From a virus: a stretch of DNA of 64,000 nt. The DNA is taken from positions 32,001-96,000 of IMG/VR virus record IMGVR_UViG_3300045988_099631; one strand, written 5' to 3'. Below, in pieces: positions 33,325 through 57,883 of this stretch; position 1 is the stretch's first letter, and each line of letters begins with the position of its first letter. The position numbers and the translations under genes were made by a program. The notes under the pieces were generated by a model. That model was given only the letters and a program-made list of their open reading frames with translations, was not told the origin of the DNA and searched no databases.

Positions 33325-33352
33325 GGGACAAAACGCCGCGCGGCGGTAGATT
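33325..33352 (+). promoter_or_regulatory. class-B promoter 1 (GGGACA-16-TAGATT)
   Basis: GCGGGACAAA...CGGTAGATT, 31 nt before the ATG at 33383. Confidence 0.5.
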
Positions 33353-33382
33353 AAAAAATAGAACGGCATGGAGGGTTTGAAA

Positions 33383-34000
33383 ATGGCGAAAACATCAGCC
33401 GCGCAAATTAAAGCGGCGCAAAAATGGCAAGCGGCAAATGTGGATAGATTATCTTTAGTAGTTCCCAAGGGGCAGCGGGACGAGATCAAAACGGCAGCGG
33501 CGGTGGCTGGTGAATCCGTCAACGCCTATATCATCGCGGCCATTCGGGCGCGGATGGGAAACGCGGACGGCGGCGCGGCTCCTGCGGCCGAGATCGTCCA
33601 GGCGGCGCAGCCGGTAGCAGAGGCGCAGCCGGGGCAGGTGCTCGACGGGGCCGCGCTGGAGTCGGCCAAGGTGGCAGCGGCGGCAGCCGGGGAGGATTTG
33701 CCCGCATTTGTGGCGCGGGCCGTCCGGCAGGCGGCGGACGCGGACGCGCGGGAGCGCCTGCTTGCGGTAGCGTGTAAAAATGCAAGTTTGCCGTCGTCAG
33801 CAGACGCAAGCGCGGCGGCTGAATCTTGCGAGACTTCCGCGTGTGATGTCGTGGACTGGGCCGCACGCACGGACCACCTGCGCGCGCTGCGAGAATCCGC
33901 CCGCGCGTCCGCTGGAATTCCAAGCCCTGAACAGACGGCTCCCGGAAATTCTGGGGACTTACCGCCTGAACAGGCAGGGTCGAAAACTCCGGGAGACTGA
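33383..34000 (+). CDS. ribbon-helix-helix (Arc/CopG-like) DNA-binding protein
   Basis: DRLSLVVPKGQRDEIKTAAAVAGESVNAYIIAAIRARM. Start set at MAKTS, after a GGAGGG RBS. Confidence 0.55.
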   Translation: MAKTSAAQIKAAQKWQAANVDRLSLVVPKGQRDEIKTAAAVAGESVNAYIIAAIRARMGNADGGAAPAAEIVQAAQPVAEAQPGQVLDGAALESAKVAAAAAGEDLPAFVARAVRQAADADARERLLAVACKNASLPSSADASAAAESCETSACDVVDWAARTDHLRALRESARASAGIPSPEQTAPGNSGDLPPEQAGSKTPGD

Positions 34001-34090
34001 CGGCCTGAACAGGGACGCCGGAAAACTCTGGGGCTGATGGACGGACACCGAAAAAACTGAACAGAGTGCCCGGAAAACTTCGGGGTATAG
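33925..34090. repeat. four degenerate direct repeats CTGAACAG-N-CCGGAAA-N-GGGG (three at a 39-nt period)
   Basis: Units start at 33927, 33966, 34005 and 34057. They straddle the stop codon at 34000. Confidence 0.5.
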
Positions 34091-34157
34091 CAGCGCTTAG
34101 CGAAAGCCGGGCGCTGCTTTTTCTTTTGCGTTCTCCGAAAATTTTTTGCCGATGGCC

Positions 34158-34184
34158 GGGACAAATTGAAAAATCGCGTAGATA
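34158..34184 (+). promoter_or_regulatory. class-B promoter 2 (GGGACA-15-TAGATA)
   Basis: Motif read upstream of the ATG at 34239. Confidence 0.5.
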
Positions 34185-34238
34185 TAAAGACAGAAAAAGC
34201 CGCGCACGAAGCGCGGCCAATGAAAAGGAGCGAACGAA

Positions 34239-34583
34239 ATGATTATTGATTTGATTCTCGACCGAGTAAACGGCAAGCCCTACGTCCCCGCCGACTTCTA
34301 CCGTAGCGTTGCGGAGTATGGGACGGTCTTCCCGGAGATCGTCTTCCCCATCACGGCGGTGCTCGACGGCGGCGCAGAAGCCGACGTGCGGCGCGTCCTC
34401 TGCGAGTATATCAAGAAAAACGACTACAACCCGGAACTGTGCGGTTACGTCCGCAGCGTGAAGTGGCTGGAGCCTGACGCGCTGCCGTTGAATCCGATCT
34501 GCGTTGACTGCAAACGACGCGGCGCGACCTGCGACGGTACGACTTGCCAATCGTGGACGGGCTGTGTTTACCGCAAAATATGA
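34239..34583 (+). CDS. hypothetical protein
   Basis: 114-aa ORF with an AAAGGAG RBS. Confidence 0.5.
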   Translation: MIIDLILDRVNGKPYVPADFYRSVAEYGTVFPEIVFPITAVLDGGAEADVRRVLCEYIKKNDYNPELCGYVRSVKWLEPDALPLNPICVDCKRRGATCDGTTCQSWTGCVYRKI

Positions 34584-34845
34584 TACGCCCGGCGGCGCGG
34601 TTGTGATTCACTTCCGCGCCTTTTTTATGCGCATAATTATTCACTGCTTTCGATGAACCAAGCAAACCAGAAGAACCGAGAAAACCAGAAAAACCAAAAC
34701 CAAGGGAACAAACAAACGGAGCGAAACCGAGAAAACCAAAAAAATCAGGAATCGGGAGAAAACCAACAAAACCAGCAGATCACCGAAACCAGCTAAACCG
34801 AGAAAACTAGAGATTTCAGAAATTGAAAAATTTTCGCAAAAAGCT

Positions 34846-34873
34846 GGGACAAATCCGAAATACATGGTAGAAT
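34846..34873 (+). promoter_or_regulatory. class-B promoter 3 (GGGACA-16-TAGAAT)
   Basis: Motif read upstream of the ATG at 34928. Confidence 0.5.
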
Positions 34874-34927
34874 ATAAAATAGAACATCAGATGAAGCAAA
34901 ACAAACAGATTATGGAGGTATAACAAA

Positions 34928-35167
34928 ATGAAACTAGCTGGAGAGTGGACAGTTCGCGGAGCTTTGCGCCATGATGGCCTGTTTACACTCAATGGTCCAG
35001 ATGATAGTCAGCTCTATCTGCCCGTTGGGGCGGAGGGCTGGAAGGATGGATGCAACGCCTTCAATCTTTCCACGCAGGAATTTGAGTTGATTCCTGCACA
35101 CGCGGATGTTTTTGAGGTTGACATCCTGCGTAGCCGCGCAAATTGGGAGACCGCCGATGCCGACTGA
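34928..35167 (+). CDS. hypothetical protein
   Basis: 79-aa ORF with a GGAGG RBS. Confidence 0.45.
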   Translation: MKLAGEWTVRGALRHDGLFTLNGPDDSQLYLPVGAEGWKDGCNAFNLSTQEFELIPAHADVFEVDILRSRANWETADAD

Positions 35168-35261
35168 CGTCCGGCGCCGCGCCAACAATAAGTGGGACGC
35201 CGCCATCGCTTGGGCAGTTGAAACAGCCGAAAGTTTTTTGAAATAAGCGCACACAATTACA

Positions 35262-35289
35262 GCGCCGGAAGAAATTCCGGCGTTTTTTC
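35262..35289 (+). terminator. rho-independent terminator
   Basis: GCGCCGGAA gaaa TTCCGGCG followed by TTTTTTC. Confidence 0.6.
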
Positions 35290-35301
35290 TTTATCCAGTG
35301 C

Positions 35302-35328
35302 GGGACAAACGCCGATTTCCGGTAGAAG
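35302..35328 (+). promoter_or_regulatory. class-B promoter 4 (GGGACA-15-TAGAAG)
   Basis: Motif read upstream of the ATG at 35367. Confidence 0.5.
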
Positions 35329-35366: not shown

Positions 35367-35705
35367 ATGACAAACGCAGCAATCATTCTGGATGAATCCG
35401 TTCGGTTAATGAACGATGGCATTCTTAAAGGCACGGGCCGATTCCTCGACGTGGTAAACGAGGACGGAAGCACCAAAAAACTCGAAATCCCCGAAGAAAT
35501 CCACACGTTCAACGCTTGGAAGCAGCGTGGCTTCATCGTCCGCAAGGGTGAACACGCCGTCGCGTCTTTCCCGATTTGGAAGTATGTCACCCGTAAGAAT
35601 ACCACTGACGAGCCGCTGGAGGCCGCAGAAGCGGCGAACGGGTTCTGCCGGATGAAACTATCCCATTTCTTCACTGCGCGGCAAGTGGAGTCTCTGAGGG
35701 CGTGA
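35367..35705 (+). CDS. ArdC-N / DUF1738-like small protein (possible ssDNA-binding anti-restriction fold)
   Basis: IHTFNAWKQRGFIVRKGEHAVASFPIW and SHFFTARQVESL resemble the ArdC N-domain motifs (F.QW...G..VRKGEKG and vFN..Qve.L). Confidence 0.4.
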   Translation: MTNAAIILDESVRLMNDGILKGTGRFLDVVNEDGSTKKLEIPEEIHTFNAWKQRGFIVRKGEHAVASFPIWKYVTRKNTTDEPLEAAEAANGFCRMKLSHFFTARQVESLRA

Positions 35706-35860: not shown

Positions 35861-35960
35861 ACAGCAAACAGTGAATATACATCCGCGCATATACAAAAAG
35901 CCGCCCCATTTGGGACGGCTTGCTTTTTACCTTTGTGGCACATATTTTATGTGATTTTCT

Positions 35961-35987
35961 GGGACAAATCCGTTTTTCCGGTAGAAG
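35961..35987 (+). promoter_or_regulatory. class-B promoter 5 (GGGACA-15-TAGAAG)
   Basis: Motif read upstream of the ATG at 36027. Confidence 0.5.
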
Positions 35988-36026: not shown

Positions 36027-36140
36027 ATGAAACACTATTACAAATCCAGCGGCTTTCAGATGTTCCTCACGGGCGCAGCCATCGCAGTCATGTTCATCAT
36101 TATCCTGTGCGCGGACTCGCTCATCGAGTTCATTCTGTGA
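36027..36140 (+). CDS. small membrane protein (37 aa, below the track cutoff)
   Basis: Hand-found MKHYYKSSGFQMFLTGAAIAVMFIIILCADSLIEFIL with a GGAGG RBS. Confidence 0.4.
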   Translation: MKHYYKSSGFQMFLTGAAIAVMFIIILCADSLIEFIL

Positions 36141-36153
36141 GGGGGGCGGCATC

Positions 36154-36507
36154 ATGCAATTCATTGCAAACAACGACGCAAAAAACGTCTTCGGCTGTTT
36201 TGAAAACGTCGAGCAGCACGCCCTTGCATTTTCCGAAGAAGCCGCTGCGAAACTGTTTGATTCAGGCATGAAGATCTTCCGGGGCGATGCAAGCACATTG
36301 AACGCCCTAAAGATCTGTTTCACTGGTAGCTTGACGATCTGCATATACCGTGAAATTGCGGACATTGACAACGGCGTTTTTCGCGTCCGTATCTGGGGCC
36401 GACCGAACGGCTACGACGAAAAAACCATGAGCAGGCAAGCGCTCAAAAAAATGGTGCTTTTCAAAATTTCGCAGGAATTTGCAGAGCCTGCCGAGCAGAT
36501 CGCATAG
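36154..36507 (+). CDS. hypothetical protein
   Basis: 117-aa ORF. Confidence 0.45.
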   Translation: MQFIANNDAKNVFGCFENVEQHALAFSEEAAAKLFDSGMKIFRGDASTLNALKICFTGSLTICIYREIADIDNGVFRVRIWGRPNGYDEKTMSRQALKKMVLFKISQEFAEPAEQIA

Positions 36508-36519
36508 GGAGGAATCACC

Positions 36520-36678
36520 ATGAACCAGTACCGCAAAACCTTTGAATTTTTCAGCACAGAACAGCAAGCCGCCGCATTTGTGGCGGCTCGCAAAAAGCAA
36601 CGCCGCAAGGCGCACATGACGCCGTGGCAGTCCGCCGACGGCAGAGAAAACAAGTTCATCGTCTGGTATTACATTTGA
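36520..36678 (+). CDS. hypothetical protein (52 aa, below the track cutoff)
   Basis: Hand-found MNQYRKTFEFFSTEQQAAAFVAARKKQRRKAH... with a GGGAGG RBS. Confidence 0.35.
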   Translation: MNQYRKTFEFFSTEQQAAAFVAARKKQRRKAHMTPWQSADGRENKFIVWYYI

Positions 36679-36692
36679 GGGAGGAAAAAACC

Positions 36693-36959
36693 ATGACCGT
36701 TTTCGTAGCCGTTCACCATTGGGATACGCCAGACAATGAGGGCGTGGAGATTCTGGGCGTTTTTGAAAAGATCGAGAAAGCCCGCGCGCAGATTGTGGCC
36801 GGAGCCGGAGCCATCCGCGCGGAGTACGACGAAGATTTCTGGGACGAGGATATGTCGTGGGACGAACCCATGAGCATTCACCTCGGGCGGTGTGGACGCG
36901 ACTATCTGGAACAGGCCACGGTCTACAGTTGGGAAATCTCCGAGCAGGAAGTTGAATAA
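36693..36959 (+). CDS. hypothetical protein
   Basis: Trimmed to MTVFVAVHHWDTPDNEG with a GAGGGAGG RBS. Confidence 0.45.
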   Translation: MTVFVAVHHWDTPDNEGVEILGVFEKIEKARAQIVAGAGAIRAEYDEDFWDEDMSWDEPMSIHLGRCGRDYLEQATVYSWEISEQEVE

Positions 36960-36975
36960 AAAATACCGGCGCAGC

Positions 36976-37003
36976 GGGACAAATGCCACTGCGCCGGTAG
37001 ATA
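36976..37003 (+). promoter_or_regulatory. class-B promoter 6 (GGGACA-16-TAGATA)
   Basis: Followed by the conserved leader GTAGAGAAAACCAAGAAAAACAGGAGGTTCCCAA. Confidence 0.5.
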
Positions 37004-37045: not shown

Positions 37046-37411
37046 ATGAAAACCGCTGGATACTGGCCTTGCAGAAACGAGATCATCGCCGCGCACCTGT
37101 CCACCCCGCACAAATACGAGCCGTTCACGGAGCTTTTCGACATGGACCAGCTCGACGCCATCCGCGACAAATACGGCGTGGACCTTTACCGCGAGTGCTA
37201 CGCCGACGCGCTGCACGAAGTCATGGAAGCCGCCAACATCACAACATATCTCCGCGCCCTGGGCGTTGAGTGCAAGCCGATCTTCACCCCGGACGACTGC
37301 CACGCGAATTTTATCGCCGTATTTTCCCTCGGCAACACGACCGCCCAACGTATCAACGAGATTGCCAGCAGAGCCGATCTTTGCGTTCTGTTCCAATGTC
37401 CAGTCCACTAA
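37046..37411 (+). CDS. hypothetical protein
   Basis: 121-aa ORF. Confidence 0.5.
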   Translation: MKTAGYWPCRNEIIAAHLSTPHKYEPFTELFDMDQLDAIRDKYGVDLYRECYADALHEVMEAANITTYLRALGVECKPIFTPDDCHANFIAVFSLGNTTAQRINEIASRADLCVLFQCPVH

Positions 37412-37437: not shown

Positions 37438-37465
37438 GGGACAAAACGCACTTTCCCTGTAGCAA
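37438..37465 (+). promoter_or_regulatory. class-B promoter 7 (GGGACA-16-TAGCAA)
   Basis: Followed by a leader nearly identical to that of promoter 6. Confidence 0.5.
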
Positions 37466-37507: not shown

Positions 37508-38170
37508 ATGACGCAGTTTGAAATCTATCAGAAAATCGCCGACGCCGTGAACGCAGCATCCGGTTCCAAGAATCCCAAAATGACTATCGTAACCGAAAGT
37601 GAGTTCGGCGGTGTGTACTTTTTGCACATCAACGCACATTCCGCAGATATCAAGCCTTATGCGCAGTACAAAGACGCGCTGACGATCTACTTCAAAAAGC
37701 GCGGCGGCCGCTCAGTCTATGGAATGCGCGTCTATGGTACAAAGCCCGTGGCAATCTTCTCCGGGTGGCAAGAGACAACATGGGAGCAGCCCAGAAGCTT
37801 CCTTTGCTTTGACAAGAATATGTTCTACGGTCTGGTTGATGGATTCCCGCAGGAGCAGAAGATTGCCGAGGAATCCGAGCGCGTTCACCTGTCCGAGATT
37901 CAGCAGAAGGGTAAGGTCTACAAGGTCGTCAGCATGAACCCGGATGACCCGCAGCATCGTATGATTGTCGAAACGTTTGAAACTGCCGAACACTTAAAAA
38001 AAGCATTTGAGACTTCCGGCGAGTTCCGCAGCGTATCGTGCCGGGCAGAATTGCAGGGTGCGCCGAATCTCAAGAACTTCTGCGGGCCGATGTACGATGG
38101 GGAGGACGATCAGGGCCGCGCCGTCATCCGCTACGAAACGCAGGAGGTCTACGACATTCTCAGCGCCTGA
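37508..38170 (+). CDS. hypothetical protein
   Basis: 220-aa ORF. Confidence 0.5.
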   Translation: MTQFEIYQKIADAVNAASGSKNPKMTIVTESEFGGVYFLHINAHSADIKPYAQYKDALTIYFKKRGGRSVYGMRVYGTKPVAIFSGWQETTWEQPRSFLCFDKNMFYGLVDGFPQEQKIAEESERVHLSEIQQKGKVYKVVSMNPDDPQHRMIVETFETAEHLKKAFETSGEFRSVSCRAELQGAPNLKNFCGPMYDGEDDQGRAVIRYETQEVYDILSA

Positions 38171-38183
38171 TTTTAAAAATGGC

Positions 38184-38211
38184 GGGACAATCCCGCCTTT
38201 TCCCGTAGATA
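38184..38211 (+). promoter_or_regulatory. class-B promoter 8 (GGGACA-16-TAGATA)
   Basis: Motif read upstream of the ATG at 38243. Confidence 0.5.
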
Positions 38212-38242: not shown

Positions 38243-38449
38243 ATGAAATACAGCAAAAAAACGGAACGTAAGCTTCTGGAAATTGCCATGCAGCATATGC
38301 CGCCCGTTGCAGATCGTGGAGACTTGAAAACGCGCAACTCAGACAGCGAGGACTTTCTCAATGTTGCTGTTTGGGGACTTCGGGACGCCCTGATGGAAGC
38401 ATACGAACTCGGCAAGGATGAGAAGGGAGAAAACCGCCATGAAAGATGA
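38243..38449 (+). CDS. hypothetical protein
   Basis: 68-aa ORF. Confidence 0.45.
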   Translation: MKYSKKTERKLLEIAMQHMPPVADRGDLKTRNSDSEDFLNVAVWGLRDALMEAYELGKDEKGENRHER

Positions 38450-38648
38450 CTACAGACTCGGCTTTGGGTATCTCGGAAATGGGCTGACGGTATGGAACAG
38501 GGCGAAAGAGGTAAATCACGACTATCAGACGGTCGCCCACATATCCTCTAGCGGAGAAATCACCTACTACAAACAGGATCTTCCGCAGTGTGTCCGGGCG
38601 CACATAGAACAAGTTGCACAAGAAGAACGTGACCATAGAAGACTTTGA
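38439..38648 (+). CDS. hypothetical protein
   Basis: Trimmed to MKDDYRLGFGYLGNG. Confidence 0.4.
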   Translation: MKDDYRLGFGYLGNGLTVWNRAKEVNHDYQTVAHISSSGEITYYKQDLPQCVRAHIEQVAQEERDHRRL

Positions 38649-38682
38649 ATCGCACGATTTTAGATAGGAAGGGAGAAAAACC

Positions 38683-39879
38683 ATGTATTACATCATCAAC
38701 CGAGAAACCGAGAAGCTGGAGCTTCATTTTGATAAATCCGAATACCAGGCGCTTTCTGACGATCAAAAATCCACCATCAAAAGCAACTTCCTCTTTTCAA
38801 GATACGGCGGCTGTTGGGTCAGCCGCGCAAAAATCCCGAACCTCTGGCGCGCAGAACAGGTTGCAAAGAGCCTTGGTGCGGAGAATCAGGGAAAGACGGG
38901 TGAGCTTCTTTCCTTCGAGGAAAAAATGGAGCGCAAAGCAGCCCGCGCGGAAGAACGAGCCGAGCGCATGGACGCGCGCGCCGATGCAGCAGAGCAGCGC
39001 GGCGAACAGCTGCAAAAGCCCATCAACGCCAGGCGCGGCGATATTGCGTTCTTCACCCAGCCCAACATCAACACATCCTCCGGGCGTACCTTCACGCGCC
39101 AGCGTGAAAGAATGTTTGCCGCCTTTGAGCGCGGCATGGACGAGTTCAAGAAATCGGAATACTACGCCGAACGTGCCGAAGCCGCCCGCAGAACAGCAGA
39201 TGCTGCGAAAAAACCGAGCAAGGATTTCTGTTATCGCAGAGTGCAGGACGCAGAAAAGAACATCCGCGCCCAGAATAAAAACATGGACAACTATCGCAAA
39301 TATCTTTCCAAACTCGACGCAGGCGATACGCTCAAACGCTACGACGGAACAGAAATCACACGCGACGAAGTTCTGCAATGGATGGAAAACAGCGCCGAGC
39401 GCATCGAATCCGAAATCTCAAGGGCTTGCTATTATCAGTCCTGCATCGACGAGCATGGCGGCGTGCAGTTCAGCAAAGAGAACATCAAGCCGGGCTATGT
39501 CGTGAAGATCAAGCATTACAACGACTGCACCGTGCTGCGAACTGGCCCGAAGAACTTCACCTATCGAACGCCGAACGGATTCGACTTGACTGCCGCATAC
39601 GCCGAAATTCTGGAAATCGTCAAAGCAGAGGAAACGACAAAGCCGACTCACCCATTCAAGGTTGGAGAAACATTTGAAATCGGCGCATATGTTGATGGAC
39701 ATCGCGTCAAACAGGTATGGGAAATTGTCAAATCGACCGCAACGACCGTCACGCTGAAAAACCAAACGACAGGCGAGAACATCCGAAGAACACCGAAAAT
39801 CCGCTGGACGTGTGAGGGAGACAAGTGGGCGCTCTGCATCGGTGACTACATCGATAGCATGTTCTATCGTTCCATTTGA
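38683..39879 (+). CDS. DUF3560-like protein
   Basis: 398 aa. The central ERKAARAEERAERMDARADAAEQRGEQL...FFTQPNINTSSGR...ERGMDEFKKSEYYAERAEAARRTA resembles DUF3560 proteins of plasmids and ICEs (recalled from memory). Confidence 0.4.
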   Translation: MYYIINRETEKLELHFDKSEYQALSDDQKSTIKSNFLFSRYGGCWVSRAKIPNLWRAEQVAKSLGAENQGKTGELLSFEEKMERKAARAEERAERMDARADAAEQRGEQLQKPINARRGDIAFFTQPNINTSSGRTFTRQRERMFAAFERGMDEFKKSEYYAERAEAARRTADAAKKPSKDFCYRRVQDAEKNIRAQNKNMDNYRKYLSKLDAGDTLKRYDGTEITRDEVLQWMENSAERIESEISRACYYQSCIDEHGGVQFSKENIKPGYVVKIKHYNDCTVLRTGPKNFTYRTPNGFDLTAAYAEILEIVKAEETTKPTHPFKVGETFEIGAYVDGHRVKQVWEIVKSTATTVTLKNQTTGENIRRTPKIRWTCEGDKWALCIGDYIDSMFYRSI

Positions 39880-39898
39880 CAAAAAGTTTGCCGGAGGC

Positions 39899-40558: not shown

Positions 40559-40624
40559 ATTTCCGAGTCATGTAGAAATTTCAGAATCCACATGTTAGAA
40601 TGGGATGAGATTGGAGGGATGCCG

Positions 40625-50372: not shown

Positions 50373-51461
50373 ATGGGATTTCCAAGCGCCTATGAAAAAT
50401 TCCGGTCAGCAATGATTGCATACGAAGAAAACCTTCGAGCGATAGGCCGTTCTGAAACAACAATTCAAAACGAAGAGTTTGTGTTCAAAATGTTTTCCGA
50501 TTTCATGCTGGAAAACAAATTGTGGGACAGACGCGAAGAAAGCTTCACGGACATTCAAGCATGGCGAGATCAGCTGCGTAGGGATGGCAAGAAACCAACT
50601 ACAATCAGGCAATACCTGACGGTTCTTTCCGCACTCTACAATTTCGCTTCATCTGACGAATTGGGGGAAAACCGATGGTATGACAGAAATCCAGTTTCAA
50701 AACTCCTGATGCCAGACACAAGGAAATTGGAGAAACGCCCGTATGATCAGCTTCTGACCGACGAACAGGTTTTGCTGCTATGGAGGAATAATCCACCGAA
50801 AGGACTCAAGCGTCCATATCTCTGGCCGAGAAACTACGCCATTGTTATTTTGCTTCTGACAACAGAAATCAGAAACAGTGAACTTCTGGTGCTCACGCCG
50901 AACGACTTGGATTGGGAAAACTCGGAGCTGACCGTTGAGCACGGAAAGGGAGACAAGTTCCGCCCAGTTGACTTCCCTATTCTTGCGCAGACAGCCGTTC
51001 GTATGTACTTAAATAGCGGAATCCGGCCTGAGACCGCTGGAAATAGCGGCCCACTTTTCGGGACAGAAGCAACCTTCGAGTTTAAGGGTGACAATAAGGG
51101 TGAGGAATGGCACGCAGGGACTCGGCAATGGCTGTCAGACGTCGTTCGGAGGCATGTAAAGGCTGTCACTGGTGTAGACATGATTCGTTCCCACGATCTG
51201 CGGCATGTCGGAGCAAGGCTCGATCTGAACAGTGGAATGACTTTTGAGGAACTGCAAGCAAAGCTTGGACATGAGTCAGTTTCAACTACGCAGATCTATT
51301 CAGGCAAGCTGACAAGCCGCAAGAACAGACGCATGACCAAGGCGGTACAAGAAGAAAAAGAACGTCAGGCGCAGAGAAATATAGACCGTTTGGAGGCAGC
51401 GGGAGATAATTTTTTCGGAAATCTCCGGTTGAAACAGATTCCCCAGCCGGAGATAGCCTAA
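50373..51461 (+). CDS. tyrosine recombinase / integrase 2 (XerC/D-like)
   Basis: SAM-like N-domain. Catalytic RNSEL...HGKGDKFR...HDLRHVGA...LGHESVSTTQIYSG. Confidence 0.8.
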   Translation: MGFPSAYEKFRSAMIAYEENLRAIGRSETTIQNEEFVFKMFSDFMLENKLWDRREESFTDIQAWRDQLRRDGKKPTTIRQYLTVLSALYNFASSDELGENRWYDRNPVSKLLMPDTRKLEKRPYDQLLTDEQVLLLWRNNPPKGLKRPYLWPRNYAIVILLLTTEIRNSELLVLTPNDLDWENSELTVEHGKGDKFRPVDFPILAQTAVRMYLNSGIRPETAGNSGPLFGTEATFEFKGDNKGEEWHAGTRQWLSDVVRRHVKAVTGVDMIRSHDLRHVGARLDLNSGMTFEELQAKLGHESVSTTQIYSGKLTSRKNRRMTKAVQEEKERQAQRNIDRLEAAGDNFFGNLRLKQIPQPEIA

Positions 51462-51558
51462 ACAAGACCAAGAAAACTACAGATTCCAGCAGTGGGAAGG
51501 TCAGCAAGAAAAACCAAGAAAATTAAAACCATCCGGGTTTCTTTCAAGCCCGGTGCAT

Positions 51559-51625
51559 GGTGGAACAATGGCGCACTGATTGGTTCATAGTCCACTCGGT
51601 ATCGGTTCAAATCCGATTTCCACCA
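51559..51625 (+). pseudogene. aberrant 67-nt tRNA-like element (perfect acceptor and T-arm, CAT in a loop-like context, D-arm region about 6 nt short)
   Basis: GGTGGAA...ATCGG TTCAAAT CCGAT TTCCACC A. I could not fold a canonical D-arm or anticodon stem. Confidence 0.35.
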
Positions 51626-51775
51626 CAATGCCGCAGTTTTTTCGATTTTTCTGCGGCACGGCATATGGCCTCCTTTCTAATGAAGAAAAGCGTCACCCAT
51701 GTAAGCGCAGGCGCTCGCCGGAACATATTAGAGATTCCGGTGCTCCAAGCTGGGAAGCTTGGCTGTGGGAAACAT

Positions 51776-51849
51776 GTGCGTGTAGTTTAATGGCAGAACC
51801 TCAGACTTCCAATCTGATGGTGGGAGTTCGATTCTCCTCACGCACTCCA
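51776..51849 (+). tRNA. tRNA-Gly (anticodon TCC), CCA encoded
   Basis: Hand fold: acceptor GTGCGTG/CACGCAC, anticodon arm TCAGA-CTTCCAA-TCTGA, T-arm GGGAG-TTCGATT-CTCCT. Confidence 0.8.
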
Positions 51850-52215
51850 CATGGGTGTTGCGGCGGGCTCAGGGAAAGTTTTGAATTTCCAAAGGCTTTG
51901 GTGAAACGATATATCCGGCCATCCGCTCAATCTGTAGGTAGTGCAAGTACGACAGATTGCGAATTTAATTAGCTGGCTCCGGCTTAATGTTTGAAAAAAC
52001 GGATGCGACCGATGCACCGGCGCAGGGTTGAAAAGTTCCGTGGTCAATCCCCTCTTGGCTTCCAGACGGTTCGCTGTGAGGCGTGAAAGATGGAAGAAAA
52101 ACTGGTGTGGCGACGCAGACCAACGGCGCAATGCCGCGTCTAGGCGTTGAGTAATGGCGGCTCTGGGACCAAGAGTGGATGACTGTGAAAAATGGGTGGG
52201 AAGTGAGTAAAAACG

Positions 52216-52473
52216 ATGGACGAAAACAATACTGCGTACTGCATCAGGTGCGGTAAGACGACAGATTATTCGATAAAACTTCAGCGCGTGAGAGTGAATG
52301 TTTGTGGGGTGCGTTTCAGCTATATTGAGAATAGACCATGTTGTATAAGTTGCGGAGAAGAAGTCTACGTTCCAAAACTTGAAGACCGAAATTCTGCTGC
52401 TAGGAAGTTTGCGTTCAACCAATCGCTGGAAAAGATCAGAAACAAATTTGATTCAAACGGAGGTAAAACATGA
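52216..52473 (+). CDS. YgiT/MqsA-type zinc-ribbon protein
   Basis: CIRCGKT...VRFSYIENRPCCISCGEEVY. Confidence 0.45.
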   Translation: MDENNTAYCIRCGKTTDYSIKLQRVRVNVCGVRFSYIENRPCCISCGEEVYVPKLEDRNSAARKFAFNQSLEKIRNKFDSNGGKT

Positions 52474-52793
52474 GTCTTGAGATTCGTTACTTAACCAACG
52501 GCACAAAAAACGTCTACGTTGTTGTAGACAGTGCATCGCGCCCGGTTTCTGTCAACTACTACGAAACGCGGGATGAGATTCCGGTTCAGATTCGGCACTA
52601 TGCTCCCGAAGGAAAACCGATGTTCGTCGGTCCTGACGGAGCGCGGCTCTTTTTCGCAATGAAGGTGCTGTATCCAGAGCTGATGTGCGAATACTGCGGA
52701 AAGCCCGGATATTCAGGTGCTGTTTGCATATTTGAATCGTGCGTCGAGCCGTGGAAAACGTGCAAGTACAGGTACACGGGGGCAGGAGCATGA
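52470..52793 (+). CDS. hypothetical protein
   Basis: 107-aa ORF with an ATGA overlap. Confidence 0.45.
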   Translation: MSLEIRYLTNGTKNVYVVVDSASRPVSVNYYETRDEIPVQIRHYAPEGKPMFVGPDGARLFFAMKVLYPELMCEYCGKPGYSGAVCIFESCVEPWKTCKYRYTGAGA

Positions 52794-53113
52794 ACGATAT
52801 CAGGTCGGTTGATTTCAGCGACGCGCAGCTTAAATCGCTCCTGTTTGAGGTGTACAGTGCAGGCTTTGAAGCCGGATATTCCCGATGTACAGACATACGC
52901 ACTGGTTTCAACACATGGTATCATGATGTAATTCAGAAAGACAATCTGCCGATCTACGCGGTACTTGACAGTACCGACAAGGACGTGCGGGATGCAATCG
53001 ATAGCGTCTGCTGTATCAAAACGATCTTGTATTCAGGCCACTATGAACACATCCGGCCGCAGTTTGAATATGCGGTCAAAGTATTAAAAGATTTCATCGC
53101 TGAAAGGTGTTGA
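52790..53113 (+). CDS. hypothetical protein
   Basis: Trimmed to MNDIRSVDFSD (ATGA overlap). Confidence 0.45.
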   Translation: MNDIRSVDFSDAQLKSLLFEVYSAGFEAGYSRCTDIRTGFNTWYHDVIQKDNLPIYAVLDSTDKDVRDAIDSVCCIKTILYSGHYEHIRPQFEYAVKVLKDFIAERC

Positions 53114-53729
53114 GATACCATCTGAGTTTGGCTAGTTCGCACAAGCGTTCCGCTGTGTAGAAAATCGGAACCCATGAAAGTCCTCGTTGCGCTGATACGC
53201 CAAACACAACAGCGCGGGCAAAAATCGTTGGTGAATATCGCGCGTAACACGCAACGTTGACTGCTGTTCAATAATTCGGGAAACAGACAAAGAGCAGGCT
53301 TGGTTAAAGGCTCATGGTGCGGTGACGAAACCAATTCCGCGCAATATAGGGTGGCGGTCATCCTTGGAGGTGCAGCGGGGTCCGAGTCCCCAAACGGTCA
53401 GGTTCGACTCCTGATCGTGCAAGGTGCAAAACCTCCAGCCTATGTGGCAGATGAATTCGAGCGGCCTCGGAGCCTGTCTTGAAAACAGTGCGCGGTGAAA
53501 GCCGTGGGGTTCGGCACCTCCATCTGCCGCCAGTTGCTGGGTCGCTCCCAGCTGATGTGGGCGGTTCCCGTCTCACCCCACAAAGAATGAAAATGCTCGC
53601 TGAAAACTGCACGGTAGGTGGATCGAGGTTCAAAAGAACGTAGAGCCCACAACGTAATGGTTCTGTTGAGGATGCCCGTGATGTGACAATCTAAGCGAGA
53701 AGACGGCCAAAAAGGAAAGGAGAACGCTG
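53114..53729 (+). ncRNA. ORF-free segment of about 615 nt with many local helices and a T-loop hairpin: candidate large structured RNA
   Basis: TGGAGGT...ACCTCCA closes a junction that contains GGGGtccgagtCCCC and TCAGG-TTCGACT-CCTGA. No ORF of 60 aa or more has an RBS here. Confidence 0.3.
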
Positions 53730-53987
53730 GTGTTTGACTACAATCCAAGTAAAAAGAAAGCCGCAGAAGAACTGGACAAATACGACTTCACAAAGCTCCT
53801 GAAACAGTGCTGCAAAATCGGATGGCGCGACCCGCTTTCGATTGGACTAAAGGGAATTGTCGGGAGGTTTCCAGAACTTGAAGACTCGGTGAGGCAGATA
53901 GGCCCAGACGACCTCGTTCACTATCTTATGGCAAAATACCCTGTCTTTTTCAGGCCAAAGGTATCGGTGGAGATGTATTTTCTTTAG
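53730..53987 (+). CDS. hypothetical protein (GTG start)
   Basis: 85-aa ORF with an AAAGGAGAA RBS. Confidence 0.4.
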   Translation: MFDYNPSKKKAAEELDKYDFTKLLKQCCKIGWRDPLSIGLKGIVGRFPELEDSVRQIGPDDLVHYLMAKYPVFFRPKVSVEMYFL

Positions 53988-53997
53988 AATTGTATAC

Positions 53998-54155
53998 GGA
54001 TGCGTGGCCGAGTGGAAAGGCAGCAAGGGTATGCGGTGCAGGAAAGCGCGACACACTCAAACCTATTGGGGTTGAAGAAGCCACCTCGGACGGGAACAAA
54101 GCTCGTCGCATACTGCCTGCACCATGCTGGGTTCAAATCCCAGCCGCATCCACCA
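53998..54155 (+). ncRNA. 158-nt tRNA-like gene: class-II-type D-arm, canonical T-arm, acceptor and CCA, but about 85 extra nt in the middle
   Basis: GGATGCG TG GCCGAGTGGAAAGGC ... GCTGGG TTCAAAT CCCAGC CGCATCC A CCA. The internal helix GGTGCAGG/CCTGCACC encloses the insertion. No standard anticodon arm was found. Confidence 0.4.
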
Positions 54156-54407
54156 TGCCCGCCAACATACGAGGTGGTTACTCGTTAAATCGTAGTTGGA
54201 ATGAAACCTCCGCATCTGGCAGCGGTGTCGTCGGGTTGATATAGCCGATAGCGAAGTTTGGGAGTAAACAAGCGAAATGGGAACTCCCCACTCAGAAGGA
54301 ATCATCAAATCATGCTTTAAGCGGAAATGCCGCTTACTTGACCGGAGCCTGCTCTGGTCAAGGTTTCAGGTTGGTTCGGCGGGACGCCGCTGCATGAGCC
54401 TGCATAC

Positions 54408-54484
54408 AGGGGTATCGCCAAGCGGTCTAAGGCATGGGACTTTGACTCCCATATTCGCAGGTTCAAATCCTGCTACCCCTGCCA
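54408..54484 (+). tRNA. tRNA-Gln (anticodon TTG), CCA encoded
   Basis: Hand fold: acceptor AGGGGTA/TACCCCT, anticodon arm TGGGA-CTTTGAC-TCCCA, T-arm GCAGG-TTCAAAT-CCTGC. Confidence 0.8.
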
Positions 54485-54754
54485 TAGCCGCCCGTTGGGG
54501 TTCTCCGCGCGACTACATTTAACATGGGGAAAAATACGGCTATCCATTCATGCACGCAATAGCGTGATCGTGAAGTGTAGCGGCCCCGGCTAAAGGCGCT
54601 GACCCACAGCGTCCAAGGAGAACGAGGCAAAAATGCAGCTATAGGGGCCAGAAAGCGGGATAGTCGCCACGCTGCAATATATGATGGTGCTATAATAAAT
54701 ATTCTTATCATGTAATTTTAACAATGTATTTGTAGCTTATAATAGGAGGACGGC

Positions 54755-54976
54755 ATGGAGGAACTTACTTTTAAGGTGTGCGATCACTGCCACGGGAAGA
54801 TGTTGCCGCAGACGACGAGCCAAACATTTCGATTTAACGGAAAAGAAATAGAAATTAAAGGTATCCAAGGTTACAGATGTGAAAGCTGCGGAAATGAAGT
54901 CTATGAAGCAAAAGAAATCCGAATGATTGATAAAATCATTCGGGCCATGAATGATAAACCGGCTGTGACATCTTAA
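54755..54976 (+). CDS. YgiT/MqsA-type zinc-ribbon protein
   Basis: CDHCHGKM...FRFNGKEIEIKGIQGYRCESCGNEVY. Confidence 0.5.
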   Translation: MEELTFKVCDHCHGKMLPQTTSQTFRFNGKEIEIKGIQGYRCESCGNEVYEAKEIRMIDKIIRAMNDKPAVTS

Positions 54977-55465
54977 ATCTGGATGAAACAGCAGACTATC
55001 TGCGTGTTAGTAATACGAAGCTGTAGACGATGAACGCCTGGTAATACAGGACGGCTCAGCCGATAATGAATGAGTAAGATAGCGTCTACGGAAATAGGAG
55101 CTGTAGTAAACGGAGTGAAATTAGCAGCCATCATATCCCCCGCGCTTGATGCGTGGGGTGCCGAAACCAATGTGTGCTTCGGCCTAAAAGGTAAAGGTCA
55201 AGCGGATATAGACCTTCGTAGAGACGGCACAAGTCTATTTTGGAACGTCCCGTTCAGCTTGCCGGGAAAGACTCACTAGTGGTCGAACCGGATGAATCCG
55301 CACTTGTTCGTAATGCTTGGGGCGAACCGAAATCCGCCAAGCTAGGCAGCACCTTTGAGGACGCTTTCAGGACTGCTGATAAACAAGCGCCGGTGTGCAA
55401 TCACCTGATTTGCCGTTGGTTTGCGCGCAAAACCTCACGTCCGGTACGTTAAGCCGGTCATAGAT

Positions 55466-55540
55466 GGGCCGTTAGCTCAACGGTAGAGCAAGCCGCTCAT
55501 AACGGCTCGGTCGTAGGTTCGACACCTACACGGCCCACCA
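55466..55540 (+). tRNA. tRNA-Met/Ile2-type (anticodon CAT), CCA encoded
   Basis: Hand fold: acceptor GGGCCGT/ACGGCCC, D-arm GCTC-AACGGTA-GAGC, anticodon arm AGCCG-CTCATAA-CGGCT, T-arm GTAGG-TTCGACA-CCTAC. Confidence 0.85.
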
Positions 55541-55567
55541 TTCATTCTTGAGAAAGGAGGATTACAC

Positions 55568-55843
55568 ATGAACAAGGAAGAACTCGTTCAGGCAGTTTCC
55601 AGCATTACCAATATGCCGAAGAACGCCAGCCTTGAAGCTGTCGATGCTGTTTTTGAAGCGATTGAAGAATCTCTTATTTCGCACGAAGATGTCACTATCG
55701 CAGGCTTCGGTAAGTTTGTTGCGAAGTACCAGAAGGCCAGAGATGCGCGGAATCCGAAGACCGGTGAAAACATCAAGGTTCCAGCCCGTTTTTCGGTCAA
55801 ATTCTCGCCGAGCAGCATTCTGAAAAACGCAGTTGCAAAGTAA
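55568..55843 (+). CDS. HU/IHF-family DNA-binding protein
   Basis: MNKEELVQAV...FGKFVAKYQKARDARNPKTGENIKVPARFSVKFSPS. Confidence 0.85.
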   Translation: MNKEELVQAVSSITNMPKNASLEAVDAVFEAIEESLISHEDVTIAGFGKFVAKYQKARDARNPKTGENIKVPARFSVKFSPSSILKNAVAK

Positions 55844-55899
55844 TTCATGGGGCTTCACAGCCCCTATACATATAAAAAATACAGAAAGGATATACTTCT

Positions 55900-56445
55900 A
55901 TGCAGGATATAAGAATCCATCGGGGCGACATTTTCTGGGTTCGTCAGGACTATGCTGCTGTCGGTTCAGAAACGAGAAAGAATCGCCCAGCAATCATTGT
56001 CAGCAACGATAAGAACAATACATATTCCGAAACTGTAGAAATAGTTTATCTTACAACTGCCGAGAAAAAGCCGATGCCTACACACGTTTCCATTGAAACG
56101 ATGGGCAAGCAATCTACTGCGCTTTGTGAGGCTGTCTACACAGTTGACAAGGAACGTTTGGAAAACTATTTTTGCACGCTGACAGCTGACGAAATGAAAC
56201 TTGTTGACCAGGCTGTTCTTGTCTCCCTAGGGCTTACCGCCACTCCGACCTGCATCGTAGGTGTATCCCAATCGTTGGAATCAGAAAAGGTACGCGTTCC
56301 GCTCAACGAGCCATTCGGATTAGAAGACGCATATCGTGTGATTCAGAAGGAACGCGATACGTTGCTTGCACAGAAAGAAATCTATGAGAAGATCTGCGCC
56401 GCTACGCTGCCGTGTTGGCCGAAGGAGGGTGAGTTGGGCGTATGA
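55900..56445 (+). CDS. MazF/PemK-family toxin domain with about 65-aa C-terminal extension
   Basis: RGDIFWV...GSETRKNRPAIIVSND...PTHVSI...ALCEAVYTVDKERL. No upstream antitoxin-like ORF. Confidence 0.7.
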   Translation: MQDIRIHRGDIFWVRQDYAAVGSETRKNRPAIIVSNDKNNTYSETVEIVYLTTAEKKPMPTHVSIETMGKQSTALCEAVYTVDKERLENYFCTLTADEMKLVDQAVLVSLGLTATPTCIVGVSQSLESEKVRVPLNEPFGLEDAYRVIQKERDTLLAQKEIYEKICAATLPCWPKEGELGV

Positions 56446-57542
56446 TTTATCTCGATCATGCTGCTACTTCGCCCCCACTTCAATGCGCAAAGATCGCCTT
56501 CAATGCAGCATCAACGGCAGCGTGGGGGAATCCAAACTCTTTACATTCTTTTGGGCAAAGTGCCAGAAATGCGTTGGAAGCTTCCCGTGAAGCTGTAGCG
56601 CAGTGCTTAAAGTGCGACTCAGATCAAGTGTTCTTCGTTTCCTCTGCAACAGAAGCTTGCAGGATTGCAATCACGAGAATGACGGAAGCATGTAAAAAAA
56701 TCTATGTAACGAAAATAGAACATGCAGCCGTAACCAGCATAACAGACCGCAAGGTATATAGTGACCGCCGGGATGGTAATCGTGGTTTCGTGCATATTCA
56801 CACCAACAACGAAACCGGTGAAATCTATGATTTGAGAAGTGCCTTTTCAGGGTATGATTTGACGTTCTCCGACTGTACCGCAGCCATGGGGAAGCAAAAA
56901 ATCAACTTCCGTGAAAGCGGAATAGACTTCATTTGCGGAGGTGGTCACAAGTTTGGTGCTCCGATTGGAATCGGCGTGTTGATCGCGCGAAATCCGGAAG
57001 CAATCACAACGAATTTTCATTTTGGAACGCCTTCTGCTCCACTCGCAGCCGCATTTGCAGAAGCGTTAGTGTTCAGGACAGACCATATAGAAGAGTTCAA
57101 AAATGCAGCAGCCACCTTGCATGACCGCCTGATTGATGGTATCATGAACGAAGTACCGGACGCACAGCTTAATGGGCTGCTTTACAAGGGAAATGAAATC
57201 ATGCAATCTCCGTACATTGCAAACGTTTCCTTCCCGAACATCGAGAACCACGCACTTGTCCTGCGTCTTGCGGCTGACGGATTGATGGTTTCATCCGGTG
57301 CGGCGTGTTCTAGCGGAGATAACGCCCCGTCCCGTGTGCTTCTCGCTTCCGGATATTCTGAGGAACGCGCACGTTCGGCCATCCGGTTCAGTTTCGATTA
57401 CAAACTCGACCCGAATGCAAATGATATGGGCTATAACTGCGGGCTGAACCTCGAACGATATATCAAAATCGTTGATGACGCAGTAAAAATCGTGGCACGG
57501 AATGTGCGGGAAATGCGGGAAATCGTATCATGCAGAGGCTAA
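56442..57542 (+). CDS. class-V aminotransferase / cysteine desulfurase (NifS/IscS/DndA-like)
   Basis: IYLDHAATSPP, GGHKFGAPIGIGVL (PLP lysine) and SSGAACSSG (catalytic Cys). ATGA overlap with the MazF-like gene. Confidence 0.8.
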   Translation: MIYLDHAATSPPLQCAKIAFNAASTAAWGNPNSLHSFGQSARNALEASREAVAQCLKCDSDQVFFVSSATEACRIAITRMTEACKKIYVTKIEHAAVTSITDRKVYSDRRDGNRGFVHIHTNNETGEIYDLRSAFSGYDLTFSDCTAAMGKQKINFRESGIDFICGGGHKFGAPIGIGVLIARNPEAITTNFHFGTPSAPLAAAFAEALVFRTDHIEEFKNAAATLHDRLIDGIMNEVPDAQLNGLLYKGNEIMQSPYIANVSFPNIENHALVLRLAADGLMVSSGAACSSGDNAPSRVLLASGYSEERARSAIRFSFDYKLDPNANDMGYNCGLNLERYIKIVDDAVKIVARNVREMREIVSCRG

Positions 57543-57555
57543 AATAGGAGGAGCT

Positions 57556-57837
57556 ATGAGAACAGAAGCAGAATACGCAGAGATTGAAAAACTTGCCGGC
57601 AAAGAAACCGTAGAAGCATTAAAAGAGAGTGATGCGGAACGTGACGAAAAACTCAAAGAGATTCGCAGTTTGAAAGAAACTCTTCTCCAAATGAACGCAG
57701 CAGATGTTGGCAACGCTTTTAAGCAGGTTCTTGCAGATGACTTGAACATTAGTCGTGATATAAGGCCACAATCTGATGCCGAACTGGACGCGCTCTGTGC
57801 AATTACAAAAATTCAGCTTCTTGAGCTTGAAACGTAA
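57556..57837 (+). CDS. hypothetical coiled-coil protein
   Basis: Trimmed to MRTEAEYAEIEK with a GGAGGAG RBS. Confidence 0.4.
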   Translation: MRTEAEYAEIEKLAGKETVEALKESDAERDEKLKEIRSLKETLLQMNAADVGNAFKQVLADDLNISRDIRPQSDAELDALCAITKIQLLELET

Positions 57838-57856
57838 AAATATTTTTCATCTGCGC

Positions 57857-57883
57857 GGGACAAAACTGATTTCCCGGTAGAAT
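57857..57883 (+). promoter_or_regulatory. class-B promoter 16 (GGGACA-15-TAGAAT)
   Basis: Motif read upstream of the ATG at 57935. Confidence 0.5.

Follow-up and report, generated by a model that had tools for sequence, protein, structure and literature searches.

A repeated GGGACA-TAGA element in the accessory arm of a gut phage, predicted to form an ECF-like promoter class read by a phage-encoded sigma factor

We analyzed a 64,000-nucleotide stretch of viral DNA (the window; positions 32,001 to 96,000 of IMG/VR record IMGVR_UViG_3300045988_099631) in which a rightward arm of small genes carries many copies of a two-block element, GGGACA and TAGA, and in which a gene on the opposite strand, ~1.6 kb from the first copy, codes for a small sigma-like protein. 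An initial annotation of this DNA had proposed that the element is a non-canonical promoter that is probably read by this protein. The arm, the protein and the predicted promoter copies are given below with positions in the window; scores are those of a weight matrix described in the next paragraph.

33325-58786, + strand: motif-controlled rightward arm (predicted), ~45 genes, most of them small and of unknown function, and 3 tRNAs; relatives differ in cassette content
31014-31736, - strand: extracytoplasmic function (ECF)-like sigma factor, 240 aa, with a helical N-terminal part, sigma-2 at ~85-145, a disordered linker at 145-178 and a sigma-4 helix-turn-helix (HTH) at 179-239; proposed reader of the motif
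33325-33352, + strand: copy 1 (GGGACAAA-N-CGGTAGATT), before a ribbon-helix-helix (RHH)/TacA-like gene at 33383-34000; score 44.6
34158-34184, + strand: copy 2, before 34239-34583; terminator 34090-34122 precedes it
34846-34873, + strand: copy 3, before 34928-35167; homology of relatives ends 10-30 nt past the copy (cassette junction)
35302-35328, + strand: copy 4, top score of 46.1, before an ArdC-N-like gene at 35367-35705; terminator 35261-35288 precedes it
35961-35987, + strand: copy 5, before a four-gene unit at 36027-36959; hairpin 35898-35928 precedes it
36976-37003, + strand: copy 6, before 37046-37411; inside hairpin 36964-36999, with the conserved leader
37438-37465, + strand: copy 7, GTAGC variant, before 37508-38170; conserved leader
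38184-38211, + strand: copy 8, before DUF6900, a small open reading frame (ORF) and DUF3560 (38243-39879); -35 within hairpin 38181-38201, with a T-run after it
39899-39926, + strand: copy 9, before 39971-40855; inside hairpin 39887-39924
41421-41447, + strand: copy 10, before the Ltp lipoprotein gene at 41490-42257
42387-42413, + strand: decayed copy (AGGACA...GCGTAGG), score 16.1; aims into the 3' end of a convergent HIRAN/endonuclease gene at 42428-43768 (- strand)
43836-43863, + strand: copy 11, before RHH (43947-44090), Rha (44265-45038) and TnpB (45368-46471) genes; a sigma-A-type promoter at 43895-43923 intervenes
46592-46618, + strand: degenerate copy (GTCACA...CGGTAGAT), score 20.7; right after TnpB and before 46669-47336
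47354-47380, + strand: copy 12, before 47422-48467
48505-48531, + strand: copy 13, before a long unit at 48584-57837 (Phage_integrase-family recombinase, 3 tRNAs, HU, MazF, NifS-like)
57857-57883, + strand: copy 14, before 57935-58786, the last unit of the arm

A pattern scan of the window with GGGACA-N14-17-TAGA gave 13 exact matches, all on the + strand and all between 33325 and 57881, while dinucleotide-preserving shuffles of the window gave a mean of 0.26 matches and a maximum of 2. Site 37438, with TAGC in place of TAGA, is a fourteenth strong copy. The consensus of the copies in the window (14 strong and 2 decayed) is gcGGGACAAA-N11/12-cGGTAGAw, with a spacer of 15 or 16 nt between GGGACA and TAGA. 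A two-block weight matrix that was trained on sites of related phages, and not on the sites of the window, scored the 14 strong sites at 34-46; its runners-up, 46592 and 42387, are the same two sites that the initial annotation had called degenerate, and the peak in five shuffled windows was 9.1. No position on the minus strand of the window scored above ~10, the best 40 positions (down to 9.7) all being on the + strand. Finally, all 14 strong sites are intergenic, which has a chance probability of ~2e-8 given an arm noncoding fraction of 0.28. The copy number, the single orientation and the intergenic placement described in the initial annotation were thus all borne out.

The T of TAGA is located 36-60 nt from the start codon at the strong sites, with an AGGAGG-type ribosome-binding site (RBS) present, the exception being site 43836 where the distance is 89 nt and the sigma-A-type promoter lies in between. 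The conserved leader is found at 36976 and 37438, and only in part at the two other sites that show it, 39899 and 35961. Canonical terminators consisting of a hairpin and a T-run occur before about five sites (34090-34122, 35261-35288, 35898-35928, 41342-41365 and 42268-42292), and at three more sites a hairpin embeds the promoter itself (36964-36999, 38181-38201 and 39887-39924). The remaining sites have no terminator and lie 13-37 nt past the upstream stop codon, so read-through is likely there. The statement that most copies sit just after a hairpin terminator was in this regard too strong, and the same is true for the description of the arm as mono- or bicistronic units: units in the first 15 kb contain 1-4 genes, with several that hold three or four, and the ~9 kb from 48584 to 57837 contain >15 genes and three tRNAs with no internal motif. 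The three embedding hairpins have values of -26.6, -13.5 and -28.8 kcal/mol, respectively, with stems that contain the -35 and in two cases also the -10, and the T-run that follows hairpin 38181-38201 could terminate the upstream unit.

The same element recurs in related phages. Specifically, an exact-pattern scan of IMG/VR returned 118 loci, of which ~45 have at least two copies on one strand only (up to 11) and five further multi-copy loci have one copy per strand. Nearly all of the single-strand multi-copy loci are contigs of 60-120 kb from one metagenome collection, and the single-copy loci from unrelated samples are expected chance matches. When hexamer-gap-tetramer pairs were enumerated without bias in the regions before ORFs of the related loci, GGGACA/GTAG came out on top, with 110 of 1152 regions containing this pair and no more than 9 in shuffles. 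A logo built from 154 non-identical sites of related phages has an A/T-rich tract resembling an UP element at -18 to -11 relative to GGGACA, a g/c and then C directly before GGGACAAA, and ttCCGG directly before TAGA. TAGA is followed by a w-n-n-A-A-A-r-r-T-R-n-A-A block in which AAArrTRnAA covers 7-16 nt past TAGA and the A at +9 occurs in 99% of sites; this conserved A-rich block is probably the predicted transcription start region. Two other models for the element were rejected. An RNA hairpin or processing site is disfavoured as a general explanation by a median folding z of -0.38, no conserved secondary structure being found over 97 sites (21% of which have z < -2), and a palindromic operator (GGGA...TCCC) fails because TCCC occurs in the spacer at only 6% of family sites. 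A megablast search with 20 kb of the window found no close relatives among GenBank phages, Rfam found nothing in the window beyond the three tRNAs, and a literature search with the motif string matched only primer sequences.

What class of promoter would this be? Housekeeping promoters have the form TTGACA-17(+/-1)-TATAAT with A at -11 and T at -7, and the motif does not conform to it. At the -7 position of the 154-site logo, 60% of sites have A and 17% have T, a 15-nt spacer is the most frequent (55% of sites), and only one of the 14 strong sites (34846, which reads TAGAAT) passes a lenient sigma-70 scan. ECF promoters have a spacing of ~16-17 nt, and GGGAC-N15/16-GGTA fits their geometry with deviations in sequence, namely GAC for AAC and GGT for CGT. 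The failure of 13 of the 14 sites in the lenient scan supports the initial view that the motif is more ECF-like than it is like TTGACA/TATAAT. In Bacillus subtilis, ECF promoters have AAC at -35 and CGT(A/C) at -10, and single -10 bases switch sigma specificity (PMC5758882). The arm also contains perfect or near-perfect TTGACA-N16/17-TATAAT promoters at 41092 (+), 44216 (-), 43895 (+) and 41394 (-), indicating that the phage uses these where host sigma is wanted.

We then turn to the 240-aa protein. A homology search returned 291 homologues at E <= 0.001, the best 120 of the 291 being 84-99% identical to the window protein, and 170 cluster representatives of the family extend down to ~25-30% identity. 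A family profile made from 54 diverse full-length homologues matched Escherichia coli sigma-E in the PDB (1or7_A, E = 1.1e-7; also 6jbq_F), with profile positions 96-239 aligning with sigma-E residues 45-186, which comprise regions 2.2-2.4, the linker and all of sigma-4. AlgU, CnrH and SigW were matched over the same span, and the helical N-terminal part (~residues 1-85) falls outside the sigma-E alignment. When Pfam was run on the 54 family members, Sigma70_ECF was found in 30 and Sigma70_r4_2 in 26 (best E-values 4e-7 and 8e-9, respectively), and neither the window protein nor the family members had a Pfam match to region 1 or region 3. In an AlphaFold2 model (mean predicted local distance difference test score, pLDDT, of 74.6), the disordered linker 145-178 joins a helical domain at the N-terminus to an HTH domain at the C-terminus. 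The top Foldseek matches of this model in the PDB, with a probability of 1.0, are almost all ECF sigmas in RNA polymerase (RNAP) initiation complexes (Mycobacterium tuberculosis SigH and SigL, E. coli sigma-E, CnrH and AlgU), and in BFVD it best matches phage proteins that carry an ECF-type sigma annotation. Thus, the sigma-2 homology, the sigma-4 HTH and the small size without sigma-1.1 or sigma-3 that define ECF sigmas are all present. Taken together, the profile and the modelled fold indicate that 31014-31736 codes for a divergent but full ECF-type sigma with both sigma-2 and sigma-4. The initial description of the protein as sigma-region-4-like was correct for region 4 and too narrow overall, as the family profile matches sigma-E over both regions 2 and 4.

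A search of GenBank phages with this protein found only one unannotated contig from human faeces (45% identity), a search of plasmids for relatives found no match, and the GTDB genomes yielded one contig of a metagenome-assembled genome, from a distant clade of the family. No other sigma or RNAP-like gene was found by Pfam among nearly all RBS-bearing ORF calls of at least 50 aa at 479-29899, in the sigma operon, in most of the plus arm and in four ORFs at 58.8-64 kb, a set that excludes minus-strand ORFs inside the arm and 63134-63636.

The motif and close homologues of the protein occur together in related phages. A scan of IMG/VR for sigma homologues gave 63 loci. Where the sigma is at least 62% identical and at least ~7 kb of upstream sequence was recovered, the opposite strand has 5-11 motif copies upstream of the sigma gene, an arrangement also found in the window, and the sigma gene adjoins the motif arm in every relative. 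The 27 loci with homologues of 40-47% identity have no motif on the strand opposite the sigma gene; one locus (L157) has a single match on the sigma strand that is probably due to chance. From the other direction, 22 of 30 contigs with at least three motif copies carry a close sigma homologue, and in the other eight the motif stretch abuts the contig end, so that the sigma gene would fall outside the contig. The loci of the distant clade (L155-L181, L182 and L183, the last being MT835520.1) have a sigma homologue that is 40-47% identical and shorter, lacking the first ~46 residues, and a divergent arm that is GC-rich and tightly packed, with frequent GAACAG repeats of which some are intergenic beside hairpins. 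These repeats were rejected as the cognate motif of the distant clade, since they are largely in coding sequence or too near start codons for a -35, and no other convincing cognate motif was found in this clade.

The -10 core of the motif exists in several dialects that follow the sigma clades. Most loci have GTAGA, while GTAGC is found in L149, L150 and L154 (with L148 being mixed) and GCAGA in L137, L139, L142 and L152, and these groups coincide with clades of the sigma. The dialect clades differ at many sigma-2 positions, among them the segment aligned with the loop that separates regions 2.2 and 2.3 of sigma-E. The recognition helix of sigma-4 (MSKSAVQRRI) and the -35 GGGACAAA are both essentially invariant across these clades. 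The switch of the -10 is visible at orthologous promoters, namely those before the homologues of 34239, 35367 and 37508, and a concerted change at many promoters of one genome would be expected if these co-evolve with a reader that acts in trans. The dialects could not be attributed to a single sigma-2 residue, as the loop aligned with this sigma-E segment (residues 108-121) also varies within the TAGA clade. The proposal that the motif is probably read by 31014-31736 is supported by the ECF fold, by the divergent position of the gene, by the co-occurrence and by a -10 core that follows the sigma clades.

The genes that follow the motif are mostly without Pfam or PHROGs annotation, the recognisable ones being RHH/TacA-like, ArdC-N-like, DUF6900, DUF3560, Ltp, Rha, a lone TnpB, HU and MazF. 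Motif copies precede Ltp, RHH, ArdC-like and DUF3560-like genes, which supports the initial suggestion of a phage-specific regulon that covers them. Judged from this gene content (Ltp, Rha, a Phage_integrase-family recombinase, MazF, HU, tRNAs and TnpB), the arm looks like the accessory arm of a temperate phage, and the lysis and tail genes that the window includes, at 58.8-64 kb, lack the motif. Within the arm, relatives have the promoters in common but can differ in the genes that follow them. Across all related loci, which are not independent of each other, 37% of homology end-points fall within -50 to +100 nt of a motif, as compared to 15% expected. For example, homology between the window and four relatives spans promoter 34846-34873, ends at 34884-34905 and is regained at 35196-35300, where the next terminator and promoter lie, and between the homologues of 34239 and 35367 there are one, two or three unrelated cassettes per phage, each with its own motif copy.

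The sigma gene closes a series of six small leftward genes, which begins at a control region from which the arm departs in the other direction. Its features are as follows.

31834-33093, - strand: five small ORFs without known function that precede the sigma gene and are apparently transcribed together with it
33160-33188, - strand: near-consensus sigma-A-type promoter TTGAAA-17-TATAAT for the leftward sigma operon; overlaps operator-like repeats

The first GGGACA promoter is 137 bp from this sigma-operon promoter and in the opposite orientation. We propose the following cascade. Host RNAP with its housekeeping sigma would start at 33188-33160 (-) and transcribe the leftward operon with the sigma as the sixth gene. 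The sigma would then accumulate, join host core polymerase and direct it to the 14-16 rightward promoters, with sigma-4 recognising the -35 gcGGGACAAA and sigma-2 recognising the -10 cGGTAGA located 15/16 nt further on. Transcription would start in the conserved A-rich block, ~9-12 nt past the T of TAGA, to give leaders of 25-50 nt with strong AGGAGG ribosome sites, and the outcome would be a co-ordinated and orthogonal expression of the ~25-kb rightward arm of small accessory (moron-like) genes. Since every cassette starts with the same ~45-bp sequence, the promoters may double as short homology junctions for exchange between related phages. The use of the sites as transcription starts, the 31014-31736 sigma as their sole reader, the order of the cascade and the role in recombination are all predictions.

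On this evidence we consider it likely that the motif is a phage-specific, ECF-like promoter class that is read by the 31014-31736 sigma on host core RNAP. Several observations weigh against this reading. The -35 reads GGGAC rather than the AAC that is typical of ECF promoters. The window protein by itself has a C-terminal HTH as its only confident Pfam feature, with many generic HTH families matching better than sigma families and with Sigma70_r4_2 and Sigma70_ECF, both matched weakly over residues 195-236, falling below their cut-offs (18.0 versus 25.7 bits and 17.3 versus 21.1 bits, respectively), so that its ECF membership rests on the profile and the fold; a PDB search with the single 240-aa sequence returned nothing useful. 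The Foldseek E-values of the 240-aa model are ~5e-3 and the global template-modelling (TM) score is low, which is to be expected for two domains on a flexible linker. There is no motif copy facing the sigma gene, and thus the autoregulation that is typical of ECF sigmas is absent, and no anti-sigma was recognised. The match of dialects to sigma clades is confounded by phylogeny, given that there are two independent switches only and that any lineage-specific gene would correlate equally well. The dialects are also leaky, with L148 having 7 TAGA and 4 TAGC sites alongside a TAGC-clade sigma, L137 keeping 2 TAGA sites and the window having one TAGC site. The ~30-45 kb of phage beyond the window could encode another sigma or RNA polymerase. 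As for the exchange junctions, an excess of homology end-points at intergenic regions is partly expected, as intergenic DNA diverges faster.

Four other explanations compete with this reading. The sites may be read by a host sigma, either sigma-A acting on a variant that the phage has optimised or an alternative or ECF sigma of the host, with the extra conservation resulting from descent of duplicated cassettes. GACA is indeed common to GGGACA and TTGACA, two sites read TAGAAT with one of these being the site that passes the sigma-70 scan, and an AT-rich UP-like tract lies upstream. This explanation is nonetheless unlikely, in that the other 13 sites fail the lenient scan, -7 is not T and the commonest spacer is 15 nt, the -10 core shifts in concert within phage lineages, and the same phage has canonical sigma-A promoters elsewhere. 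Furthermore, GGG and the G of TAGA are invariant over the 154 diverged sites while flanks and genes differ, which indicates selection rather than descent. The 240-aa protein could instead be an activator (MotA-type, class II, or RinA/ArpU/LtrC-like) that binds GGGACAAA and brings sigma-A polymerase to a weak TAGAnn -10. The HTH as sole confident single-sequence feature and the combination of an invariant -35 box with a -10 core that tolerates variants would both fit an activator, and one report describes sigma-like late activator families in phages of Gram-positive bacteria (PMC3753634). An activator appears improbable to us with a family profile whose alignment to ECF sigmas covers both sigma-2 and sigma-4, with fold matches that are sigmas inside RNAP initiation complexes, with a -10 core that lacks the T at -7 that sigma-A needs, and with PHROGs placing the protein in no annotated activator family.

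The motif might also be read by another phage factor (a second sigma or a phage RNAP) whose gene lies outside the 64-kb window, and 31014-31736 might have other targets. In favour of this, relatives are 80-120 kb in size, so that 30-45 kb lie beyond view, the sigma is not autoregulated through the motif, and phylogeny confounds the dialect correlation. We give this little credence, as Pfam revealed no such gene among the ORFs scanned, no other multi-copy motif that could be the target of the sigma was seen in the window or the related loci, and the sigma gene lies beside the arm in every relative; a bipartite motif with a variable 15/16-nt spacer moreover fits a sigma-dependent multisubunit polymerase and not a T7-like enzyme. 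The last explanation is that the motif is no promoter and acts at the level of RNA or recombination, as a processing or antitermination site or as a pure cassette-exchange site. An RNA element would likewise be strand-specific and lie shortly before ribosome sites, breakpoints of homology are concentrated at the motif and ~20% of sites are inside stable hairpins. Against this, the 97 sites have no conserved secondary structure; the two blocks, the poorly conserved spacer of variable length and the upstream AT tract have the anatomy of a promoter; and several sites lie directly past intrinsic terminators, where a new start is needed. We thus regard a purely RNA- or recombination-level role as very improbable.

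Phage sigmas that have private promoter sets are well established, examples being SPO1 gp28/gp34 and T4 gp55, and many phage proteins are annotated as ECF-type sigmas. What is particular to the present case is an unannotated sigma family that is abundant in gut viromes, a predicted regulon that is located in an accessory, hyperplastic arm and not among the late structural genes seen in the window, -10 variants that track clades, and promoters at cassette junctions. The comparison with the host-takeover module of SPO1 that was drawn initially extends to layout only. The SPO1 module likewise has many small genes that each, or nearly each, have their own strong promoter, but those are host sigma-A early promoters in the terminal redundancy of a strictly lytic phage. 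The promoter class in the window is not sigma-A, and the arm has moron- and lysogeny-like content that includes a Phage_integrase-family recombinase, Ltp and Rha. With regard to cellular ECF sigmas (E. coli sigma-E; B. subtilis sigma-W, X, M and V), the two-domain sigma-2/sigma-4 architecture is shared, and the promoters are alike in that a -35 of GGAAC type (here GGGAC) runs into a homopolymeric tract, the spacer measures ~16 nt and the -10 is a short G/C-T-A element (CGTA versus GGTA). The phage system differs by having GAC for AAC at -35, no autoregulatory promoter, no recognisable anti-sigma, a helical N-terminal part outside the sigma-E alignment and a single sequence that scores below the Pfam thresholds.

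Further parallels are the sigmas of Salmonella phage 7-11 and of phiEco32. The gp47 promoters of 7-11 are, like the motif, bipartite, GTAAtg-16-aCTA, with starts 6-9 bp downstream (PMC8948821), and the gp36 motif of phiEco32 is tAATGTAtA (PMC12276001). As proposed for the window, these are small divergent sigma-70-family proteins that are made from a host-sigma promoter and redirect host core RNAP to a private motif in 6-8 or more copies. However, they serve the middle or late (structural) genes of lytic coliphage-type podoviruses, as opposed to the accessory arm of a temperate-looking large phage, the consensus sequences are unrelated, and no gp79-like cofactor was identified. Another parallel is offered by the promoter early stem-loops (PeSLs) of hyperplastic regions in T4-type phages, in which repeated promoter motifs, sometimes with a terminator hairpin, flank small ORFans at cassette junctions (PMC2839356, PMC4122927). 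Repeated promoters also mark the junctions in the window where cassettes of close relatives differ. In PeSLs, an obligatory stem-loop accompanies an early promoter of the host sigma-70 class, whereas we propose a phage sigma for the motif and find a hairpin at about half of the sites; neither the obligatory stem-loop nor the host-sigma early promoter is a feature of the arm.

A tentative and rather doubtful extension is that the arm is a gene-capture platform. The private sigma/promoter pair would give an incoming cassette immediate, phage-timed and host-independent expression, the promoter would be the recombination junction, and the dialects would reflect an ongoing sigma-promoter co-evolution that insulates related gut phages co-infecting one cell from each other's regulation. 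This would amount to integron-like or PeSL-like logic under the control of a phage sigma. If the promoter assignment is correct, then a cognate sigma/promoter pair has been defined from sequence alone for an abundant uncultured human-gut phage family, in a sigma family that is currently annotated no further than 'HTH'. The predicted regulon of ~45 accessory genes would include anti-restriction and superinfection-exclusion candidates, the timing of which would then be predictable. It would likewise provide natural promoter variants paired with sigma variants for studies of ECF -10 specificity or for orthogonal expression parts, and an example of regulatory repeats as cassette-exchange junctions in phages of probably Gram-positive hosts. 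The circuit is well-defined but not unprecedented, and it reveals no new principle of transcription.

Other features of the window deserve a brief description. The leftward 1-33.1 kb contain RecT, single-stranded DNA-binding proteins (SSBs), a replisome organiser, dUTPase, 3'-phosphoadenosine-5'-phosphosulfate (PAPS) reductase, HNH, YopX and an SNF2-helicase/methylase fusion with a Hint domain; this last protein (14179-17655, - strand, 1158 aa) combines an SNF2-type helicase with an N6/N4 DNA methylase and is interrupted by the Hint (intein-type) domain at ~755-800. The 58.8-64 kb region is also leftward and contains a CHAP/SH3 endolysin and proteins of tail-associated look. The long unit 48584-57837, which holds the recombinase, HU, MazF, the NifS-like gene and the tRNAs (Gly, Gln, Met), has its tRNA genes at the following positions.

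51776-51849, + strand: tRNA Gly-TCC, in the motif-less unit downstream of 48505
54408-54484, + strand: tRNA Gln-TTG, in the same unit
55466-55540, + strand: tRNA Met-CAT, in the same unit

As predicted from this arrangement, the tRNA genes would be co-expressed with the unit downstream of promoter 48505, and the ORF-like stretches 51628-51972 and 53990-54522 around the tRNAs are probably not coding. The TnpB gene at 45368-46471 (IS605 OrfB/Cas12f-like TNB domains) has no adjacent TnpA, and the degenerate copy at 46592 sits 120 nt past the TnpB stop, where the right end of the element or its guide RNA is expected.

Two places in the arm have a local arrangement of sigma-A-type promoters. The 630-nt intergenic region 40856-41489 has TTGACA-16-TATAAT at 41092 (+), a terminator at 41342-41365 (+) and a convergent TTGACA-17-TAAAAT at 41394 (-), a layout suggestive of a pair of small RNAs or of a toxin-antitoxin module of type I. 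At 43836-44236, three ATCGTG repeats flank the sigma-A-type promoter 43895-43923 (+) ahead of the small RHH gene 43947-44090, and a perfect TTGACA-17-TATAAT at 44216-44188 (-) points in the opposite direction toward the HIRAN/endonuclease-I gene 42428-43768 (-). We read this region as a putative local switch nested within the sigma-controlled arm.

In the divergent control region, 33094-33382 contains at least four copies of a 16-20 nt TATATAGTTATTACATA-like repeat that is partly palindromic (CTATAT-TAC-ATATAG) and overlaps promoter 33188-33160 (-). These repeats look like an operator array for a repressor, which may possibly be the RHH protein of 33383-34000. Directly downstream of the sigma gene, the ~1.1 kb at 29936-31013 has no convincing ORF and a GC content of 59%, compared to ~49% elsewhere. 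It is conserved at 66-90% in relatives, with a core at ~30054-30214 that is conserved at 80-97%. A terminator-like hairpin precedes this core, which contains a G-run (GGGGGAGGGGGG), an invariant AAAAATAAAATTTGCGCGGTTGCCTT(A/T)CGGCAAC and a second hairpin with compensatory changes (GTCC-TAC-GGAC, TTCC-TTC-GGAA, ACCC-TTC-GGGT), and has no match in Rfam. The 29936-31013 stretch could be a structured RNA, such as a leader or antitermination element of the 23-kb leftward operon, or a replication origin. Finally, a GC content of 58-59% is shared by the sigma gene, gene 33383-34000 and the noncoding 29.9-31 kb, the rest of the phage being at ~49%, and the sigma protein and the 33383-34000 product are both alanine-rich. 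This contrast at 30000-34000 hints at a different origin of, or a different constraint on, the regulatory core.

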